Below are positions 14 to 8,345 of a DNA stretch of 64,000 nt, one piece after another; within the stretch, counting starts at the first letter, position 1, and every line of letters begins with the position of its first letter. The DNA is from an uncultured Actinomycetes bacterium (GTDB lineage Bacteria > Actinomycetota > UBA4738 > HRBIN12): NCBI GenBank assembly GCA_963832225.1, contig CAWHTI010000013.1, positions 122,315 through 186,314 of the forward strand. Direction: 5' to 3'. A program made the translations under genes and the position numbers. The notes under the pieces were generated by a model. The model saw nothing but the letters and a program-made list of their open reading frames with translations. It made no database searches and was not told the DNA's origin.

Positions 14-3000
14 GTGTTGCACTGGCTCGCCGAGGAGTCGGATCGCCTCGCGTGGGAGCTCGACGGCTCTGTCGTGCTCGTCGACATCTCCGGGTTCACG
101 AGAATGTCCGAACGGCTGTCGCGCAAGGGCAAGGTGGGAGCGGAGGAGATCACCGACGTTCTCGGCGCGGTGTTCAGTCGACTCCTTTCACTCGCGTATG
201 CCGAGGGCGGGGGGCTTCTGAAGTTCGGCGGAGATGCCCTCCTGCTCCTCTTTGCCGGCGACGAGCATCCACTTCGCGCGGTCAGGGCGGCGGCGGGGAT
301 GCGGCGTGAACTCCATCAGATCGGCGCGATCCACACGTCCGCCGGACTTGTGCGACTGAGGATGTCAGTGGGAGTCCATACCGATCGTTTCCAGTTCTTC
401 CTGGTCGGTGACTCGCACCGAGAGTTCGTGATCTCGGGACCCGGCGCCAGCGAGACGGTGCTGATGGAGGCCGTCGCGGGTGCCTCCGAGATCCTCATGA
501 GTCCGTCCACCTCGCGGTTCGTCCCGGATTCCTTGGTCGGAGCGTGGAAGGCCGTCGGGTTCCTGCTGCGCAAGGACCCCGGCGACGTCGCTGCTCATCC
601 GAAGGAGCGAGAGCTAGATCTGTCTGGAGTCGATGTGTCACAGGCAGTTCCGCTTGCCATACGGCGGTATCTCCAGACCGGCCTCGTCGAGCCAGAGCAC
701 CGGAAGGCTGCTATCGGCTTTCTGCACTACGACGGCATGGATCTTCTCGTCACGGAGGAAGGAGTCGGATCGGCAGCGATGGCGCTGCATGAACTGGTGT
801 GCGACGTCCAGGACGCGGCCGATCGCAACGGCGTGACATTCCTCGGGTCCGACGTGGATCACGATGGTGGGAAGATCATCCTCGCGGCCGGCGCGCCGGC
901 CGCGGCGGGCGACGATGAGGAGCGCATGCTCCTGACGCTCCGAGCGATCGTCGAACGGCCACGCAGGCTGCCAGTTCGTCTCGGGGTGAACCTCGGCCCG
1001 GTGTTCGCCGGCAATATCGGCCCCGAGTACCGGCGCACGTACACGATCATGGGTGACGCCGTGAACCTTGCCGCCCGACTGATGAGCAAGGCTGCTCCAG
1101 GTGAGGTCATCGCGACGAAGGGCGTCCTCGACGCGTCCGCCGCGCGTTTCCGGGTCGAAGCCCTGCCGCCATTTCTGGTGAAAGGAAAGGCAGCGCCCAT
1201 CGTTGCATATTCGGTCGGACCACTGCAGCGGGTGCGCCAGCGGAGGGACGGCACGGAGTTGCCGCTCGTCGGCCGCCAGAGCGAGCTCCGTGAGCTCGCC
1301 GATTCGTTGATGGCGCTCCGGGAGGGGCGGGGACGACTCCTGGAGATCGTGGGGGCTCCCGGGATCGGAAAGAGTCGACTGCTGAACGAACTCCGAAGTC
1401 GCTCAACGGGATTCAACAGGTTGGATGCGGCGTGCGAGCTCTACGGGGCCTCCGTGCCGTACCTCGCGTTTCGGGACGTGCTCCGTGCGGCAATCGGCCT
1501 CGCTGACGACGTCGACGACGCCACGACCTTGATGCGGTTGCAGACCGAGATCCGGTCGCGTACACCCAAGCTCGAGCCGTGGATGCCGCTGATCGCAGTG
1601 GCACTGGGGCTCGACGTCCCGCCGACGGACGAGGTCCGTCAACTCGACGATTCGTTCCGGAAGGATCAACTCGAGCGGGTGGTGGGGATCTTCCTCGCCG
1701 GAGTCGTGGAGGGTCCGACCCTGATTCTCATCGAGGACGTCCACTGGATGGACGAACTCTCGTGTGATCTGCTCACGCGTTTGGTGACCGAGCAGCTAGC
1801 AGACGCACCGTGGCTGATCTGCGTTACCCGTCGGGACGCCGCGACCGGCTTCTCCGCTCCATCGCACGACGTGGTGCTCGCGATCATGCTGCCTGCGCTC
1901 GATCCCGAGGATGCCCGGCTGCTCGTGGAATCGGCCACGGAAGACGCACCCCTCCTGCCGCGAGAGACCGAGGCGCTCGCGGAGCGGTCCGGCGGCAACC
2001 CATTGTTCCTGCAGGAGCTCGTTCGCGTCTCTCGGGAAGGAGGGATGGAGGCGCTGCCGGACTCCATCGATGCGGTGGTCACCGCTCAGATCGACCAGCT
2101 GGCGCCGGCCGACAGAGGGCTGCTTCGAACGGCCTCGGTCCTGGGCGCTGTCTTCAGCGAGACACTCCTGTGGAGTCTACTCGACACCGAGACTCGCCCA
2201 CGCAACGGCGCCGTGTGGGAACGCTTGGATTCGTTCGTGGTCCAGCATGACTCGGGGACGTGGCGATTTCGTCACGCGCTGATGAGGGATGCGGCCTACG
2301 AGGGCTTGCCGTACCGGCGCCGGCGCGACCTGCATGCACGTGCCGGCAAGCTGATCGAGGAGGCCGCTGGTAATGGCGCTGACGTGGCCGAGCTGCTGTC
2401 GTTGCACTACTTCAACGCCCAAGGATTTCCAGAGGCGTGGCGTTACTCCGTGATCGCCGGCCACCGAGCTCGCGATCGCTTCTCGAACGGTCGGGCGGCC
2501 GAGTTCTACGAGCGAGCGCTGAATGCTGCTTCCCACATCGGCTCCGTCGAGCTTCGTGAGATCGCGGCGATTCGCGAGGCGCTTGGCGATGTGCTCGTGC
2601 GGATGGGGGACTTCCGACGGGCACGCGGTGTCTACCGAGACGCCCGTGCCTCACTCGGCGACGAGGCCCTTGGGACCGCGAGAATCCTTGAGAAGCAAGC
2701 GAGGATCTCCGAGCGGTTGGGGCGTTACTCGGACGCGCTCCGTTGGCTGCAACGCGGTCTGAGCGCCTTGAACGGTTTGGACGGGATCGAAGTCCTCCGT
2801 CAGCGGGCTCAACTGTCAGTCTCCTACGCATCGATCCGGGTCGCGCAGGGCCGCGCCCGCGAGGCGAGGACCTGGTGCGCTGGGGCCATCGAAGAGGCCG
2901 ACGCCTCCGGGGAACGAGAGGCACTCGCACACGCGTACTACATCCTGGACTGGGCGCTCTTCCTCGAGGGCCGTGCAACCGGGTACGAGAACTCTTCGAA

Positions 3001-3853
3001 AGCGCTCGAGATCTACCGGGAGTTGAGCGACCCCGCAGGGCAAGCCGTCGTGCTGAACAACCTGGGTGGATTCAAGTACTTCGACGGCCAGTGGGACGAG
3101 GCGGTGGTCCTGTACAAGCGAGGCCGCGACGCCAGGGAGCGCACGGGCGACCCCGTGAACGCTGCGTACGGCACCTGCAACATCGGTGAGATCCTCTCGG
3201 ACCAGGGCCGGCTCGAGGAGGCTGAGCCGCTGTTGCGGGATGCCTCGCGCGTGTGGCGTGCGGCGGGCGACAGAGCCGGCGTGGCGTTCGCAGAGAGTCT
3301 GCTCGGGCGATTGGCGAGCCGCGCCGGACGCGCGGAGGAGGCGTTGGACCTGTTCGCTCGGGCCCGCGCCACGTTCGTCAAGGTGGGAAGCCAAACCGAC
3401 ACCATCGAGGTCGACGCGCGCGTCGCCGAATGCCTCGTGTTCCGAGGACTCGCCAACGAGGCGCTCGAGCGCGTCTCGACGACGCTGGTGGAGGCCGAGG
3501 CCTTCGAGGGAGTCAGCGTCCAGACGCCGCTGCTGCAACGGATTCGCGGATACTCGCTGATGCAGTTGGGGCGGTTGGATGATGCGGCCACGGCGTTCGA
3601 CGCCAGCCTGCTGGTGGCGCAGGCGCGCAAGGCGCGGTACGACGAGGCGCTGACCTTGCGGGCGGTCGAACAGCTCGCCCGCCTTCGAGGGTCGGGGCCG
3701 TCCTCGACTGGACGGCAGAGCGACCGAACACTCTCCGAACTCGGCGTCGTGGCTGTGCCCGACGTCCCTGACGTCGGCGCCATCGTGGATCCGGAGACGG
3801 CATCACTCACGGCCGTCAACGACGGCACAACGGAGATCGCCTCGCCAACGTGA
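14..3853 (+). CDS. Adenylate/guanylate cyclase (two class III cyclase domains) + AAA/STAND ATPase + TPR repeats; 5' end probably just outside the window
   Basis: Domain 1 has VDISGFT and KFGGDA; domain 2 has TIMGDAVNLAARL and VKGK; LVGRQSEL, Walker A GAPGIGKSRL, IEDVHWMD, SGGNPLFL, TPR-like C-terminus. The frame is open back to the window edge. Confidence 0.9.
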   Translation: MLHWLAEESDRLAWELDGSVVLVDISGFTRMSERLSRKGKVGAEEITDVLGAVFSRLLSLAYAEGGGLLKFGGDALLLLFAGDEHPLRAVRAAAGMRRELHQIGAIHTSAGLVRLRMSVGVHTDRFQFFLVGDSHREFVISGPGASETVLMEAVAGASEILMSPSTSRFVPDSLVGAWKAVGFLLRKDPGDVAAHPKERELDLSGVDVSQAVPLAIRRYLQTGLVEPEHRKAAIGFLHYDGMDLLVTEEGVGSAAMALHELVCDVQDAADRNGVTFLGSDVDHDGGKIILAAGAPAAAGDDEERMLLTLRAIVERPRRLPVRLGVNLGPVFAGNIGPEYRRTYTIMGDAVNLAARLMSKAAPGEVIATKGVLDASAARFRVEALPPFLVKGKAAPIVAYSVGPLQRVRQRRDGTELPLVGRQSELRELADSLMALREGRGRLLEIVGAPGIGKSRLLNELRSRSTGFNRLDAACELYGASVPYLAFRDVLRAAIGLADDVDDATTLMRLQTEIRSRTPKLEPWMPLIAVALGLDVPPTDEVRQLDDSFRKDQLERVVGIFLAGVVEGPTLILIEDVHWMDELSCDLLTRLVTEQLADAPWLICVTRRDAATGFSAPSHDVVLAIMLPALDPEDARLLVESATEDAPLLPRETEALAERSGGNPLFLQELVRVSREGGMEALPDSIDAVVTAQIDQLAPADRGLLRTASVLGAVFSETLLWSLLDTETRPRNGAVWERLDSFVVQHDSGTWRFRHALMRDAAYEGLPYRRRRDLHARAGKLIEEAAGNGADVAELLSLHYFNAQGFPEAWRYSVIAGHRARDRFSNGRAAEFYERALNAASHIGSVELREIAAIREALGDVLVRMGDFRRARGVYRDARASLGDEALGTARILEKQARISERLGRYSDALRWLQRGLSALNGLDGIEVLRQRAQLSVSYASIRVAQGRAREARTWCAGAIEEADASGEREALAHAYYILDWALFLEGRATGYENSSKALEIYRELSDPAGQAVVLNNLGGFKYFDGQWDEAVVLYKRGRDARERTGDPVNAAYGTCNIGEILSDQGRLEEAEPLLRDASRVWRAAGDRAGVAFAESLLGRLASRAGRAEEALDLFARARATFVKVGSQTDTIEVDARVAECLVFRGLANEALERVSTTLVEAEAFEGVSVQTPLLQRIRGYSLMQLGRLDDAATAFDASLLVAQARKARYDEALTLRAVEQLARLRGSGPSSTGRQSDRTLSELGVVAVPDVPDVGAIVDPETASLTAVNDGTTEIASPT

Positions 3854-3863
3854 GGCGGCGGCG

Positions 3864-4730
3864 CTACGCCCCGCCCGACTTCGTACCCATCCTGGGGTCG
3901 GTATCGGACGTCCGAACCAGGACGGCCAGATCACCATCGTCGCGAGTTGTCTTGGCCACGCAGGGTATCGACGACGAGGTGCAGCTCGAGAGCTGAACCG
4001 GGTTTTCCCCCTTCGTCGCGTCGTACCACACGACGAAACCGGTCACCCCTCCTGCGGCGCGATCAGGGGCGGCCTCGACCACTGTCTCGTCGTACATCAG
4101 TTTGACCGTGTAGAAGGGTCCACCCAAACTCCCGTTCTCAAGTGCGTTCACGAGCACCTGGTTCGCGAGGCACGATCCGTTGCAGAACCCGTTGTCGGGC
4201 TCTTCCTTCAGCGTACCGACGCCCGTTGTGCCTGCGGGGAACGTCTGCTTCCCGACGAACGGATCGGTCGGCGTCGCTCCGTTCCCTGTGCTCATCGACA
4301 GGTTGCCGCCGCCGATCAGCTCGGCATCCTGCCCCCTGTTCGGGGTCGCCGAAACCTCATTCGACGGTGAGCTCTCACCGCATACGTTGACGGCGGTCAC
4401 GGTGAACGCATACGACTGACCGTTGTTGAGCTTGTTCAACTGTGTCTGTGTCTGGGTGGTCCGTCGCGTCCGCACGCCGTCCACATACACCCGGTAGAAG
4501 TCGACGCCCCCTCCGTTGAAGGCGGGCGGGTCCCAGAACAACACGACGTTCCGATTCCCGGCCGCAACCGTCAGGTCTTGCGGCGGGCCAGGAGCCGAGA
4601 AGGGTCCGCCCTCCCCCATCGGCAGCGATCGCTCACCGCCACCACAGCCGCCCGCAGCGGCCATCGGCGCACCGGGGGCGAAGATCGACATCAGCAACGA
4701 CAGCGGAACGAGCAGCGCAATCCGTCTCAT
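3864..4730 (-). CDS. Secreted fibronectin type III domain protein
   Basis: GGAGGT RBS before ATG 4730; signal-peptide-like MRRIALLVPLSLLMSIFAPGAPMAAA; FN3 pattern PGPPQDL...WDPP...Y.V...LNNGQSYAFTVTAVN..GES. Confidence 0.8.
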   Translation of the reverse strand: MRRIALLVPLSLLMSIFAPGAPMAAAGGCGGGERSLPMGEGGPFSAPGPPQDLTVAAGNRNVVLFWDPPAFNGGGVDFYRVYVDGVRTRRTTQTQTQLNKLNNGQSYAFTVTAVNVCGESSPSNEVSATPNRGQDAELIGGGNLSMSTGNGATPTDPFVGKQTFPAGTTGVGTLKEEPDNGFCNGSCLANQVLVNALENGSLGGPFYTVKLMYDETVVEAAPDRAAGGVTGFVVWYDATKGENPVQLSSCTSSSIPCVAKTTRDDGDLAVLVRTSDTDPRMGTKSGGA

Positions 4731-5055
4731 CAGCCACCTCCCACGTTGGCCCAGGCTCCCCGCGCTCGCCCACCCCGTCGAGCGAACCTGCTGTACATCG
4801 TCCTCGCGGCCTCGATGCCCGAAGCTCATCTCTCCCTCCCAGCTGGGGTCGGCTGAGCCAATGACGTCCGATGACACTCACACGGGTGGGATGGAGGGGT
4901 CATCAACCGTTTGCGGTAATCATCTCGCCTATACACGGGAGAGCAACCCCCTGGCTCGGGGTGCTTCGAAGCACTCAGACCTCTCGCCCCGCGCCGGGCA
5001 AACAAGACTTCCCCGCTGTTGTCGATCACCTCTTGGTTGTTCGTTCGCGGGGCGG

Positions 5056-5107
5056 GCAAGACGAGAACGCCCCCCGCAACGCTGAGCAGGGGGCGTTCAA
5101 CGTCTGC
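5056..5107 (-). terminator. Long GC-rich hairpin downstream of the 19-aa Cys peptide ORF
   Basis: Minus strand GAACGCCCCCTGC-8 nt loop-GCGGGGGGCGTTC (13 bp, one G-U pair that works only on the minus strand), extendable by AGACG/CGTCT; weak U tract. Confidence 0.6.
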
Positions 5108-5121
5108 TCGAACCGGCGGAA

Positions 5122-5181
5122 TCAGCAGCAACCCGGTGGGCAGCAGTCGGGCGGGCAGCTCGGATCGTTGTCTACGATCAT
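5122..5181 (-). CDS. 19-aa Cys-rich peptide MIVDNDPSCPPDCCPPGCC (not in ORF track)
   Basis: GAGAGGAGGGGAC directly before ATG; upstream TTGACA-17 nt-CAACGT; TGA at 5122-5124; followed by a hairpin; divergent from arsR. Confidence 0.7.
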   Translation of the reverse strand: MIVDNDPSCPPDCCPPGCC

Positions 5182-5194
5182 GTCCCCTCCTCTC

Positions 5195-5248
5195 ATTGAT
5201 GGACGTCGATACGTTGCCAGATGTATAGATAGGTGTCAATATGAGGAT
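5195..5248. promoter_or_regulatory. Overlapping divergent promoters with two candidate ArsR operators
   Basis: ATTGATGGACGTCGAT (5195-5210) and ATAGATAGGTGTCAAT (5225-5240) share AT(T/A)GA-N6-TC(G/A)AT; plus strand TTGCCA-17-CAATAT lies 6 nt before the arsR GTG (leaderless); minus strand TTGACA-17-CAACGT. Confidence 0.65.
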
Positions 5249-5584
5249 GTGAAGCAGATCGCCGTGATCGACCAGGCATGTTGCCCCCAGGTGCTCGGCT
5301 CGCCGCTGTCCGCGGCTGAGGCCGAGGACCTGGCGGGGGCGCTCAGGGTCGTGGCTGACCCCGCTCGTCTGCGGCTCCTCTCGCTGATCGCCGCAACCGA
5401 GGGGTCAGAGGCGTGCGTGTGTGACCTCACCGAGCCGCTGGGCCTGTCGCAACCGACGGTCAGCCACCATCTCAAGGTGCTCACCGACGCTGGTCTCCTC
5501 GCTCGCGAACAGCGTGGCCGATGGGCATTCTTCAGCATCGAAGCCGAACCACTTGCCCTTCTGCGGAAGGCCCTATCCCCATGA
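5249..5584 (+). CDS. arsR: ArsR/SmtB family arsenic-responsive repressor
   Basis: N-terminal ACCP, ADPARLRLLSLI, EACVCDL, LSQPTVSHHLKVL; ATGA overlap with arsC. Confidence 0.9.
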   Translation: MKQIAVIDQACCPQVLGSPLSAAEAEDLAGALRVVADPARLRLLSLIAATEGSEACVCDLTEPLGLSQPTVSHHLKVLTDAGLLAREQRGRWAFFSIEAEPLALLRKALSP

Positions 5585-5994
5585 CCGCAGAACTCCCCGA
5601 GGTCCTGTTCGTCTGCGTTCACAATGCGGGGCGCTCCCAGATGGCTGCCGCGCTACTCAACCATCACGCCGGGGGGCAAGTGGCCATCCGCTCTGCCGGG
5701 AGCACACCAGCCGACGAGATCAATCCCTCCGTCGTCGCGGCGATGGACGAACTCGGGATCGACCTGTCGAAGGAGTTCCCGAAGCCACTCACGACCGTCG
5801 CGGTCGAGGCCGCTGACGTTGTTGTCACGATGGGTTGCGGTGACGCTTGTCCGATCTTCCCGGGCACGAGGTACCTCGACTGGGAGTTGCCGGACCCCGC
5901 AGGCAAGTCCCTCGAAGAGGTTCGCTCGATCCGCGACGAGATCGAGCGACGTGTGCACGTTCTCCTCGACGACCTCGTGAGCCGAGCGCGGTAG
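5581..5994 (+). CDS. arsC: Arsenate reductase, LMW-PTPase fold (actinobacterial type)
   Basis: VLFVCVHNAGRSQMA, VVTMGCGDACPIFPG, DWELPDPAG, IRDEI. Confidence 0.93.
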   Translation: MTAELPEVLFVCVHNAGRSQMAAALLNHHAGGQVAIRSAGSTPADEINPSVVAAMDELGIDLSKEFPKPLTTVAVEAADVVVTMGCGDACPIFPGTRYLDWELPDPAGKSLEEVRSIRDEIERRVHVLLDDLVSRAR

Positions 5995-5996
5995 CG

Positions 5997-6104
5997 ATGG
6001 TCGGCTCGGGAGTTCTGCGCCGAACCAGAACGGGTCCGAACCTTCCGGTCAGGCGTCGAGCCCGTCTCCCCGGCTATGACTGCTGTGACGCGGACTGCTG
6101 CTGA
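5997..6104 (+). CDS. 35-aa peptide ending YDCCDADCC (possible leader or Cys-rich peptide)
   Basis: ATG 2 nt after the arsC stop; same DCC-x3-CC-stop end as the 5122-5181 peptide; stop codon lies in a hairpin arm pairing with the next RBS. Confidence 0.5.
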   Translation: MVGSGVLRRTRTGPNLPVRRRARLPGYDCCDADCC

Positions 6105-6149
6105 TCCCTTCGTTCCGTCAGCCATCCACAGATCCAGAGGGGTCAAACG

Positions 6150-7058
6150 ATGTTCGAGTCGCGGTTGAGCCATGCATATCTGATCGGTGCTGCCATGTGC
6201 TGGGGACTCGGTACGGTCCTCAGCAAGTACGCGCTCGGGGGCATCGACGCCTCTCTGCTCCTTCCGTTCCAGTTGGCGTGCAGCGTCCTGATGTTGGGTG
6301 CATTCCTGCTCATGACTCGTTCCTCGCTGCGCGGTATCCGCCGTGCCGCGCAGATCGCCGCGTTGGGGGTGCTCAACCCTGGGATCGCGTACGCGCTCGG
6401 GTTGATCGCGCTCGCGCACATCAACGCATCCGTGTCGGTGATCATCTGGGCGACGGAGCCGGTCGTGATCGTTGTCCTGGCCTTCGCGATCCTTCACGAA
6501 CGGCTCCCCCTCTGGAGTATCGCCTGCCTCGCCGCTGCTATGGCGGGAGTCGCCCTGATCGTCGGCACTCCTTCAACGGGCAACTCCACCTTCGGCGTCG
6601 TCCTGACGTTTGCCTCGGTCTTCGCCTGTGCCCTCTACGCTGTGCTGCTACGTCGGATGGATCTGACGGACGGCACGCTTCCGGTCGTCTTCTTGCAACA
6701 AGCGAGTGCGCTCGCCTTTGCCGTGCTGGTGTTGTTCGCCGTCTCGGTGCAGTCCTTACACTCGATCGACGCGACGGCATCTCAACTGATCAGCGCGATC
6801 CTCTCCGGAGGCCTCTACTACGGCGTGGCCTTCCTCCTGTTCGTCTCTGGTCTGCGACGGACCTCCGCTGCTCGAGCGGGAATGTTCCTGACCCTGATAC
6901 CGGTGTTCGGCTTGTTCTTCAGTGCGTTGCTGTTGGGGGAGACGATGGACGCTGGACAGCTCATGGGGTCGACGGTTGTGGTCGGCTCGATGTCGGTTCT
7001 TGCCCTGCGACAGGCGAACGATCCTCGGAAGCGCAGGCGGGCCCGACTTGCTCAGTAG
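6150..7058 (+). CDS. EamA/DMT family transporter
   Basis: About 10 hydrophobic segments in two repeats; WGLGTV, ATEP, LIPVFG..LLLGE motifs. Confidence 0.88.
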   Translation: MFESRLSHAYLIGAAMCWGLGTVLSKYALGGIDASLLLPFQLACSVLMLGAFLLMTRSSLRGIRRAAQIAALGVLNPGIAYALGLIALAHINASVSVIIWATEPVVIVVLAFAILHERLPLWSIACLAAAMAGVALIVGTPSTGNSTFGVVLTFASVFACALYAVLLRRMDLTDGTLPVVFLQQASALAFAVLVLFAVSVQSLHSIDATASQLISAILSGGLYYGVAFLLFVSGLRRTSAARAGMFLTLIPVFGLFFSALLLGETMDAGQLMGSTVVVGSMSVLALRQANDPRKRRRARLAQ

Positions 7059-7309
7059 CCGGCATTCCTTCACGACAGGCGCTTGCTCCTCGTCAGCGGC
7101 TTGCGATCCGGCCGCGAGGGTCGCGCGATCAGCGTGACCATGCAGCTGACAGGTTGCTGGGTTCCCTGAACGGTTGCGGGGGGAGGAGACACGGATCGAC
7201 CGACACACGCTCACCTGCATGTCAAGTTCGATCCCTCCGCGCACGCCACCTTGACAAACCCGAGGACCGTGTGTCGCACCGATCCAGGATCAGGGATGCT
7301 TATCGGCGC

Positions 7310-8173
7310 TTACCGCTCGAACGACGAGCTTCGTCTGCCGGCAACGGTGAGCGCGTCGACTCGCTCGACGAACGAACCGGCCGGTCTCGGCTGGGCTGCG
7401 ATCGCGGCGCGGATCGCCGTCCATACATCGGACCTTCGGTCGACGCTCTGTTCCGTGAGCATGTTGTTGATCGTCACGCTCGTGTCACGTAGATAGTCGA
7501 CGTACTCATCAGACGAGGCGAACGGCGTCGCGAGCTCGATGATCTCGCTCCGAACGTCGACGAAGCCTGCATCAACCAGCGTCGCCTCCAGCCCACTCCG
7601 GTCGTCCGGCGCGAACCTCATCCGAACCGGCTCGTTCTCGGGAAGGCCTAGGTGGCGCCGCGTGACGGCGACCGCGGTCGAGAAGAACGGCGATCGCGGG
7701 TAGAGCGATGCGGCGAGTCGCCCGCCGCTCACGAGCGCGCGCCGGACCCGGCGCAGCGCCTCGTCGACGTCGGGAAGGAACATCAGCCCGAACCTGCTCA
7801 GCACGACGTCGAAGTGATCTTCGTAGTCGAGCTGCTCCGCGTCAGTCTCGAGGAACTCGACGTTCCGCAGCCTTCGCTCGGCGGCGCGCTCTCGCGCGAT
7901 CGCCAGCATCCCCGGTGAGATGTCGGTTGCGACGACGCGTCCTTCCGAGCCGACTGCGGCTGCCGCCGTCAGCGCCGGCTCGCCGATCCCGGTCGCGATG
8001 TCGAGCACGCATGCGCCCGGCTTCACCTCGGCGAGCTCGAGCAGCCGCTCCGTCACGACATCCGCCTCGAGCTTGTCCCACCAGCGACGCCAGCCGATCG
8101 CGGCGTCGCTCCATCCGCGGCGCTGGGCGGTCTTGAACGCGTCACGATCGAAAGGGCGACCCACGGCCGTCAC
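7310..8173 (-). CDS. Class I SAM-dependent methyltransferase (UbiE-like)
   Basis: VLDIATGIGEP, TDISPGML, DAEQL, FDVVLSRFGLMF; start codon uncertain. Confidence 0.85.
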   Translation of the reverse strand: MTAVGRPFDRDAFKTAQRRGWSDAAIGWRRWWDKLEADVVTERLLELAEVKPGACVLDIATGIGEPALTAAAAVGSEGRVVATDISPGMLAIARERAAERRLRNVEFLETDAEQLDYEDHFDVVLSRFGLMFLPDVDEALRRVRRALVSGGRLAASLYPRSPFFSTAVAVTRRHLGLPENEPVRMRFAPDDRSGLEATLVDAGFVDVRSEIIELATPFASSDEYVDYLRDTSVTINNMLTEQSVDRRSDVWTAIRAAIAAQPRPAGSFVERVDALTVAGRRSSSFER

Positions 8174-8345
8174 TTTATGCCTCCAGCTCAAGGAGCTCCG
8201 GGTAACGGCGGGTCGGAGATCCTCCCGATCTACCGCATCATCGCGCCCGAGGTTGCGCACTGCCAAGTTCAGTGGATCCACGGGGATTCCATACAACCAC
8301 CGTGACGTGGTCACCGACGACCTGCGGCGATGTCTGGTCCAGAAG

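Follow-up and report, generated by a model that had tools for sequence, protein, structure and literature searches.

Translational attenuation by short cysteine-coding reading frames has been described in mycobacteria. In the portion of that work drawn on here (Canestrari et al. 2020, bioRxiv 10.1101/834739, also Mol Microbiol 114:93), the polycysteine tract of a short open reading frame (ORF) pairs with the Shine-Dalgarno (SD) region of the gene that follows. Ribosomes that stall when Cys-tRNA runs short block this duplex and relieve the attenuation, two consecutive Cys codons being sufficient. Conserved non-Cys residues, according to the authors, may exert an effect via the ribosome or in the form of a small protein, and the ermCL and cat leaders are mentioned in the same portion. 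Ribosome stalling at such polycysteine ORFs was confirmed in M. tuberculosis, according to the part of a 2026 NAR paper considered here. Control of this kind has so far been shown by experiment in mycobacteria only. The subject of the present analysis is a candidate with similar anatomy, a 35-codon ORF (sORF2) located between the arsenate reductase gene arsC and the gene of an EamA/DMT-family transporter, in a 64,000-nt stretch of DNA from an uncultured Actinomycetes bacterium (the window; contig CAWHTI010000013.1, positions 122,315 to 186,314). In the reading favoured here, which is given a probability of roughly 0.55, sORF2 would be a cis-acting leader ORF, in which a ribosome-position switch on the Cys codons gates the translation of EamA. 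The elements on which this reading is built are the following.

5997..6104, + strand: sORF2, the 35-codon leader ORF (MVGSGVLRRTRTGPNLPVRRRARLPGYDCCDADCC*), beginning 2 nt past the arsC stop, with relatives upstream of EamA genes
6054..6089, + strand: conserved core codons R-R-A-R-L-P-G-Y-D-C-C-D of sORF2, with the invariant CC pair at 6081-6086
6077..6087, + strand: ancestral anti-SD arm, made up of the final Tyr-codon base and GACTGCTGTG, able to pair with 6135-6145, with two mismatches in the window
6096..6101, + strand: second, terminal CC pair of sORF2, found in the window copy only; no other family member ends in CC
6102..6110, + strand: 5' arm of the hairpin, stop codon TGA plus TCCCTT (TGATCCCTT), present in minimum free energy (MFE) and centroid folds, pairing probability 0.61-0.66
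6137..6145, + strand: 3' arm of the hairpin (GAGGGGTCA), which holds the EamA SD, GAGGGG, 7 nt ahead of the ATG
6150..7058, + strand: EamA/DMT-family transporter of 302 residues, the presumed gated gene (Pfam EamA, E = 4.5e-33)

Conservation of the leader ORF upstream of EamA genes

Orthologues of the window EamA were found to be rare, with matches at E <= 1e-20 in three of 294 genomes of the class (the window genome, G211, and G186), and one more in a metagenome-assembled genome of a species collection (L034, 59% identity), the sole locus from that search. Three of these loci, anchored on EamA alone, carry sORF2 (..RRRARLPGYDCCDADCC* in the window, MSALARRRPRLPGYDCCDADC* in G211, and MYRSDGRRPRLPGYDCCDDCAD* in L034). 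Scanning of metagenomes with the pattern L-P-G-Y-D-C-C-D returned 23 stretches, consisting of 15 family members and eight chance matches in AT-rich contigs. An EamA relative (tblastn, 49-79% identical) lies directly downstream in 13 of the 15 members; the match in the L039 contig covers the first 24 residues only, with the N-terminal motif of the family, and the L046 contig ends directly past sORF2. Collapsing near-identical contigs left 12 lineages with an intact sORF2-EamA pair and one with a decayed pair (G191). A class-wide scan with the shorter pattern P-G-Y-D-C-C found three of 294 genomes (the window genome, G211, and G191); this pattern alone is not enriched, because its reversed control found four, and all three real matches adjoin EamA or its remnant. 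The earlier note on this DNA, which was made from the window sequence, had linked sORF2 to the translation of the transporter gene, and the finding that family members precede EamA relatives establishes it as a genuine conserved element tied to EamA.

The family core, RR[P/A/L]RLPGYDCCD, lies upstream of one EamA subfamily, at a spacing of 37-76 nt, in uncultured Actinomycetota. R-L-P-G-Y-D-C-C-D is invariant in the 12 aligned peptides, and the endings past D-C-C-D are diverse (ADC, ADR, SDRR, SDCS, ADV, GDC, EDC, DCAD, and DEDSSR; ADCC in the window only), and 7 of the 13 lineages have a lone Cys at the third residue past the CC pair. The CC-x3-CC-stop ending, whose conservation the earlier note had suggested checking, is not the conserved feature, as the second CC pair occurs in one lineage of the 13. 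Over the 12 core codons, 2, 3, and 10 sites vary at the first, second, and third codon positions, respectively. In the metagenome hits, L-P-G-Y-D-C-C-D was set in advance by the pattern used for the scan. No such bias affects the RRPR flank or the three sequences anchored on EamA, and the same synonymous variation is seen there. This third-position variation points to selection on the sORF2 peptide. The antisense frame that shares the wobble positions carries a stop (by eye; the reverse complement of GGCTAYGAC reads G-TCR-TAG-CC).

A search of 1.84 billion representative proteins with a profile built from these peptides, 12 in number, yielded three hits, namely two true members (38 and 59 residues) and one unrelated repeat protein, indicating that the motif is not part of a larger protein. 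Both sORF2 and sORF1, a separate 19-residue peptide encoded nearby and described below, are too short for gene callers, and neither peptide has a family in Pfam or NCBIfam. No account of a Cys leader ahead of EamA was found in the literature; the supplementary tables S2 and S3 of the mycobacterial preprint, which stand outside this comparison, might list similar ORFs.

Predicted pairing of the Cys codons with the EamA Shine-Dalgarno

RNAalifold analysis of nine leaders predicted one consensus helix only, in which the Tyr-Asp-Cys-Cys-(Asp) codons pair with C[A/G]CAGGAGUC, the segment that holds the EamA SD. The helix consists of 10 pairs, two of which have compensatory changes. In a pairing test of 15 rows, 92.6% of the cells pair, compared with 38-52% when the partner was slid by one to three columns. 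In partition-function folds, the SD core pairs with the Tyr-Asp-Cys-Cys codons with a probability of about 1 in G211, L036, L047, and L045, and of 0.5-0.6 in L034 and L040; in L048, the partner is a second GACUGCUGA at the ORF end. Accessibility of the SD in the free leader is 0.10-0.21 in seven relatives, compared with a median of 0.37 and a 5th percentile of 0.17 for 300 SD-bearing genes of the window genome. Ten of the 15 rows have TGT as the second Cys codon, although TGT makes up only 11.7% of the Cys codons in 1311 long ORFs of that genome. The U of this codon faces the A of CACAG in the SD flank; L034 and L048, with a TGC codon, have CGCAG.

Copies linked to arsenic resistance (ars) genes, including that of the window, have their predicted partner just past the stop, at +5 to +8 in the window (P = 0.61-0.66) and at +3 to +6 in L052 (P = 1.0), and masking is weaker in this subgroup (SD accessibility 0.25 in the window and in L040). 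When a ribosome was simulated on the stop codon, SD accessibility rose above that of the free leader in 10 of 12 sequences; it fell from 0.34 to 0.31 in L041 and went from 0.59 to 0.60 in L037.

In the window, the ORF is present as the earlier note had claimed, with its ATG at 5997, 2 nt past the arsC stop, 35 codons, and the stop TGA at 6102-6104; the frame is open upstream as far as a TTG at 5847, and the first ATG is that at 5997. At least two consecutive Cys codons lie near its 3' end (6081-6086 and 6096-6101). A frame ending in CCCCCC* elsewhere in the genome (contig C12) was rejected as a polycysteine ORF, being an out-of-frame Leu run of a phosphoesterase signal peptide. The D-C-C-x3-C-C-stop pattern has exactly two copies in the six frames of the 3.5-Mb assembly, both flanking arsR-arsC, an arrangement well beyond chance. 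The hairpin taken alone, unlike this motif, is not beyond chance. As to its geometry, the claim of nine pairs, two of them G-U, over the EamA ribosome-binding site was confirmed, except that the 3' arm (6137-6145) lies one base to the left of the position implied; pairing of 6102-6110 with 6137-6145 was recovered in the MFE and centroid structures of both 86-nt and 186-nt folds, and the partition-function fold pairs the SD core with the post-stop arm at a probability of 0.61-0.66. The particular arm described in the earlier note, built from the stop codon and the following 6 nt, proved to be specific to the window, most relatives using their Asp-Cys-Cys codons instead. In four soil-metagenome DNA runs, contigs reach the stretch only as small pieces of low depth, one of which (run X2) carries an additional A past 6127, within the loop of the hairpin, and leaves the arms unchanged.

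A simulated ribosome on the terminal CC pair or on the stop raised the window SD accessibility from 0.25 to 0.46, whereas one stalled on the first CC pair left the SD masked (0.27). The private second CC pair adjoins the relocated arm, which fits an opening of the SD only from the terminal CC pair or the stop. This idea does not generalise, because L052 and L041 have Arg codons where the window has the terminal CC pair. Gating of EamA by the Cys codons, as put forward in the earlier note, was borne out in part: pairing with the ribosome-binding site is predicted across relatives, the architecture matches the mycobacterial attenuators, and in the window only a ribosome on the terminal CC pair or stop opens the SD in silico. 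The other option raised there, binding of arsenite by the nascent CC pairs, is speculative.

Because the anatomy is the same as that of the mycobacterial attenuators, a ribosome-position switch on the Cys codons is rated most likely. Alongside the conservation, the synteny, and the predicted pairing described above, we infer that the ORF is translated, that ribosomes pause on it, and in which direction regulation runs. The 3' end region of the leader ORF would sequester the EamA SD in a duplex, the partner being the Tyr-Asp-Cys-Cys codons in most relatives and, in the window, mainly the stop codon plus 6 nt beside the extra CC pair. A ribosome that lingers at the Cys codons, as it might during a shortage of charged tRNA-Cys, would cover this arm and free the SD, so that EamA is translated, and the duplex would re-form behind a ribosome that finishes fast. 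The conserved non-Cys residues probably tune pausing via the exit tunnel. An arrangement in which stalling turns EamA on would be appropriate for the import of sulfur compounds, or for an exporter required when thiols are depleted, as under arsenic stress; with a relay that depends on termination, the logic would be reversed.

Several points weigh against this reading. A pure tRNA-Cys sensor would not need the strong conservation of RRPRLPGY, and any role of EamA in cysteine metabolism is putative. The earlier note had suggested looking for covariation; over the 15 rows, both partners differ in a single pair, and the covariation score is equalled in 52 of 500 shuffles, so the covariation is suggestive and not significant. 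The 5' arm is also constrained by coding and by the search pattern, and the 3' arm by SD function. The fold energy of the window hairpin is ordinary (z = -1.22, with 28 of 200 shuffles as good, for the 86-nt fold; z = -0.15, with 89 of 200 as good, for the 186-nt fold), and the window SD accessibility of 0.25 corresponds to about the 18th percentile of 300 other genes of the same genome. Masking is weaker still in L041 and L052 (0.34 and 0.33), where the anti-SD follows a Cys-free tail, out of reach of a ribosome stalled on the CC pair. Finally, the G186 orthologue has no Cys ORF upstream of EamA.

Gene context and competing explanations

The remaining features of the locus are given below.

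5249..5584, + strand: arsR, ArsR/SmtB-family repressor, whose stop overlaps the arsC start (ATGA)
5581..5994, + strand: arsC, arsenate reductase of the low-molecular-weight phosphatase type; stop TAG at 5992-5994, 2 nt ahead of the sORF2 ATG
5122..5181, - strand: sORF1, the separate 19-residue peptide (MIVDNDPSCPPDCCPPGCC*), divergent from arsR, with an AGGAGG SD
5065..5098, - strand: 13-bp GC-rich terminator-like hairpin 3' of sORF1 (-38.5 kcal/mol, z = -4.29, 0 of 200 shuffles as good)
7310..8314, - strand: S-adenosylmethionine (SAM) methyltransferase gene, convergent

The sORF2 copies fall into two kinds of context, with 5 of the 13 lineages in ars clusters and 8 not ars-linked. A TANNNT hexamer located just ahead of an ATG is a signature of actinobacterial leaderless mRNAs. 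Of the 11 contigs that have no ars genes, 10 carry TANNNT 6-8 nt upstream of the sORF2 ATG (7 of 8 lineages, L045 being the exception), compared with 13 of 572 control ATGs in the same loci, and the ATG of these copies stands 10 codons before L-P-G-Y (12 in L037). Judged by this signature, sORF2 looks leaderless in 7 of the 8 non-ars lineages. The window copy, which has no -10-like hexamer and starts 2 nt past the arsC stop, lacks, on sequence grounds, a leaderless start.

In the ars-linked subgroup, sORF2 is not leaderless and would be coupled to arsC or arsR, its start overlapping or abutting the preceding stop (TGATG in L040 and L052, ATGA in L041, and TAGCGATG in the window). ArsR orthologues (76-86% identical) lie directly upstream of sORF2 in L040/L046 (together with arsC), L041, and L052/L057, and the window EamA has its nearest relatives in the proteins of L040, L052/L057, and L036. 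Because sORF1 is divergent from arsR also in L046 and L052/L057, the layout sORF1, arsR, (arsC), sORF2, EamA recurs. In the window and its closest relatives, the module may have been inserted behind arsR-arsC, with the leader translated by coupling to arsC instead of from a leaderless start; such an insertion, with coupling, would place the transporter under both ArsR and the leader.

Individual loci display further variation. In L041 and L052/L057, arsC was apparently deleted, and its start codon, lying across the arsR stop, now opens a frame that runs on into sORF2; the resulting ORFs have 38 and 45 codons and the same end, RRRPRLPGYDCCDSDRR*; L041 also has a PALP-family enzyme nearby on the opposite strand. 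The ars cluster of G191 (L021/L059) consists of sORF1, arsC, an aquaporin-type (MIP) channel, an sORF2-like ORF, and an EamA remnant, the decayed pair being (V)RRHPRRPGYDCCGEGC* and a 33-residue remnant, followed by an unrelated Fe-S protein gene. In L033, the G186 locus, the Cys ORF was lost to a deletion in the alignment, and a GACUCC/GGAGUC anti-SD pair and a Cys-free frame to the same TGA persist.

The earlier note had presented sORF2 as a second DCC-x3-CC peptide beside the 19-residue sORF1, but sORF2 is not a second member of the sORF1 family, as the conserved cores and contexts differ. A scan of the 294 class genomes with the pattern D-C-C-x3-C-C-TGA found 34 genomes, including two non-family matches (L002 and L024), compared with none for the reversed pattern. 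These sORF1 tallies include one unpublished genome (G162, locus L009), on which alone no claim is based. Among the matches listed, all but L002, L024, and the window sORF2 are tiny ORFs with the consensus M-x-D-P-C-C-P-P-D-C-C-P-P-[G/D]-C-C*. Inspection of ORF context at 30 loci (L001-L030) revealed a strong SD and a downstream hairpin: the family consists of hexa-cysteine peptides of 11-19 residues (M-x-DPCCPPDCCPPG/DCC*), each with an AGGAGG SD and followed by a strong hairpin. Of 28 family loci, 26 have an ArsR orthologue divergent from sORF1, and 20 have ArsC at a distance of at most 3 kb. Compared with the DPCCPPDCCPPGCC peptides of this family, sORF2 has only D-C-C in common, a different core (RRPRLPGYDCCD), no SD of its own, and EamA as its neighbour; its D-C-C-D-A-D-C-C ending was seen in the window only. 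As far as their sequences show, sORF1 and sORF2 are not homologous. Both are tiny unannotated Cys-rich ORFs with D-C-C, and both lie around arsR in the window, L046, and L052/L057; sORF1, however, has its own AGGAGG SD and a terminator-like hairpin, whereas sORF2 has another core, is tied to EamA, and is rarer (3 of 294 class genomes). The sORF1/arsR arrangement recalls the smtA-smtB metallothionein/repressor pair, which has a divergent layout. No account of a Cys-rich mini-peptide divergent from arsR was found in the literature. In L007, L021, and L026, arsC follows sORF1 in the same direction, and in L008-L018 (genus g22), a conserved GGTAGCATCACCTGCCCATGGGG located about 60-80 nt past sORF1, ahead of a phosphoglucosamine-mutase-type gene, looks like a -10 box with a leaderless start.

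The G+C content of the window is 71.5%. Further upstream of the module lie a 1279-residue ORF (14-3853, + strand) and a 337-residue protein with a fibronectin type III domain (3864-4877, - strand), neither with an evident link to the ars module. The methyltransferase at 7310-8314 was not counted as ars-related, as ArsM model matches were far below the cut-offs. An Rfam scan of 4800-7200 found nothing at the locus and, upstream, only a sub-threshold match to the sodF small RNA (E = 0.88), and a consensus promoter and terminator scan of 4900-7400 gave no match. NCBIfam returned only weak, sub-threshold matches for the window EamA, to the generic 2A78 and YddG models.

Among the alternatives to the ribosome-position switch, two are comparably placed and both improbable. 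The first is a ligand-sensing arrest peptide, in which the nascent RRPRLPGYDCCD would stall the ribosome via the exit tunnel, possibly only with a small molecule (arsenite, another thiol-reactive species, or the EamA substrate being possible ligands), and unmask the EamA SD in the manner of the erm and tna leaders. This would account for the conservation, with synonymous variation, of the peptide beyond its Cys codons, and would give a role to the basic cluster 6-9 residues ahead of the CC pair; the presence of 5 of 13 lineages in ars clusters is in its favour, as is the absence of the profile motif from any larger protein among the 1.84 billion representatives, so that it behaves as a stand-alone leader. 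The case is, however, built on peptide-level conservation, with no known arrest motif recognised, 8 of the 13 lineages are not ars-linked, and the simpler tRNA-Cys model already explains the pairing of Cys codons with the SD.

The second, similarly doubtful alternative is that sORF2 encodes a functional small peptide, which would bind a metal or metalloid by its DCC(D-x-D-C) end, for instance as a chaperone or buffer, with the RNA pairing incidental; its partner in this would be either the transporter or the second Cys-rich peptide of the locus. Conservation at the amino-acid level would be expected of it, and the recurrent order sORF1, arsR, (arsC), sORF2, EamA in the window, L046, and L052/L057, together with the third Cys three residues past the CC pair in 7 of 13 lineages, is consistent with it. 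Only two Cys residues are invariant, however, in a highly charged peptide of 21 residues with no predicted fold, sORF2 always lies 37-76 nt from the EamA start, and a constraint at the RNA level is suggested by the use of the rare TGT codon opposite the SD flank.

Less probable than either is a specific arsenic function, in which the RRPRLPGYDCCD leader would be a ribosome-borne sensor of thiol stress or arsenite, and the EamA-type permease an exporter of arsenite or arsenic-thiol compounds for ars operons that lack Acr3 and ArsB. Arsenite, As(III), might deplete charged tRNA-Cys and thiols, or bind the vicinal Cys pair of the nascent chain, so that the ribosome pauses and the SD is unmasked. 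EamA is the only permease in the window ars operon, and searches of the 73%-complete genome G000 for Acr3 (TIGR00832) and ArsB (PF02040) gave no match, though arsR-arsC is present; this is compatible with an arsenic role for EamA and does not establish one. Hints in the same direction are the 5 of 13 lineages in ars clusters and the decay of the G191 pair where the ars cluster has an aquaporin-type channel. If the sensor view were true, it would define a new arsenic efflux family under the dual control of ArsR and a leader peptide.

A plain translational-coupling relay, in which any ribosome that reaches the sORF2 stop melts the hairpin and hands translation over to EamA, the Cys codons sensing nothing, is given an equally small chance. 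The rise in SD accessibility with a ribosome on the stop (10 of 12 sequences) would be expected of such a relay, and ars-linked sORF2 copies do overlap or abut the preceding stop (TGATG, ATGA, or TAGCGATG), but it leaves unexplained the invariant CC pair, the conserved peptide, and the retention of the same codons as SD partners in leaderless copies that are independent of one another. That sORF2 is a functionless chance ORF in GC-rich intergenic DNA is very improbable, for although the frame is open for 85 codons, overlaps arsC, and is of a kind common at 71.5% G+C, and the hairpin energy is ordinary, conservation across EamA relatives of 49-79% identity, a coding substitution pattern, and an invariant core already contradict it.

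Comparison with described leader systems

The leaders ermCL/ermBL, cat/cmlA, tnaC, and speFL are drug- or metabolite-sensing peptides that unmask an SD. sORF2 resembles them in being a conserved leader peptide ahead of a resistance or transport gene, with the SD predicted to be sequestered by the 3' region of the leader; a comparison by eye, made with no search or alignment, revealed no resemblance in sequence. The E. coli EamA protein (YdeD), a cysteine/O-acetylserine exporter, belongs to the same Pfam family (EamA/DMT) as the window transporter and offers a conceivable link between a Cys-codon leader and a thiol-related substrate.

The closest likeness is to the mycobacterial polycysteine leaderless ORFs (Ms5788A and others, the "Cys ribulon"), as they are presented in the parts of the source drawn on here. 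Both have consecutive Cys codons near the 3' end, directly upstream of the regulated gene, and predicted to pair with its SD region; most sORF2 relatives look leaderless, and both systems belong to Actinomycetota. Unlike the mycobacterial attenuators, sORF2 has only two invariant Cys codons, which lie inside a strongly conserved 12-residue peptide, its target is an EamA transporter instead of a recognised cysteine-metabolism operon, and its host is an uncultured non-mycobacterial lineage, known here from sequence alone. The window copy departs further, in that it is coupled to arsC and not leaderless, and its predicted anti-SD has moved to the stop codon. The conservation of both the peptide and the RNA pairing makes this an unusually clean case, which could help to separate the sensing of tRNA supply from effects of the nascent peptide. 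Its recurrent recruitment into ars operons, beside a second conserved micro-peptide with six cysteines, suggests that arsenic stress and thiol supply are connected, and raises the possibility that an EamA-type permease takes part in arsenic resistance. If the ribosome-position switch is correct, cysteine-codon switches read by the ribosome would reach beyond mycobacteria and cysteine biosynthesis, to a transporter in uncultured soil Actinomycetota.

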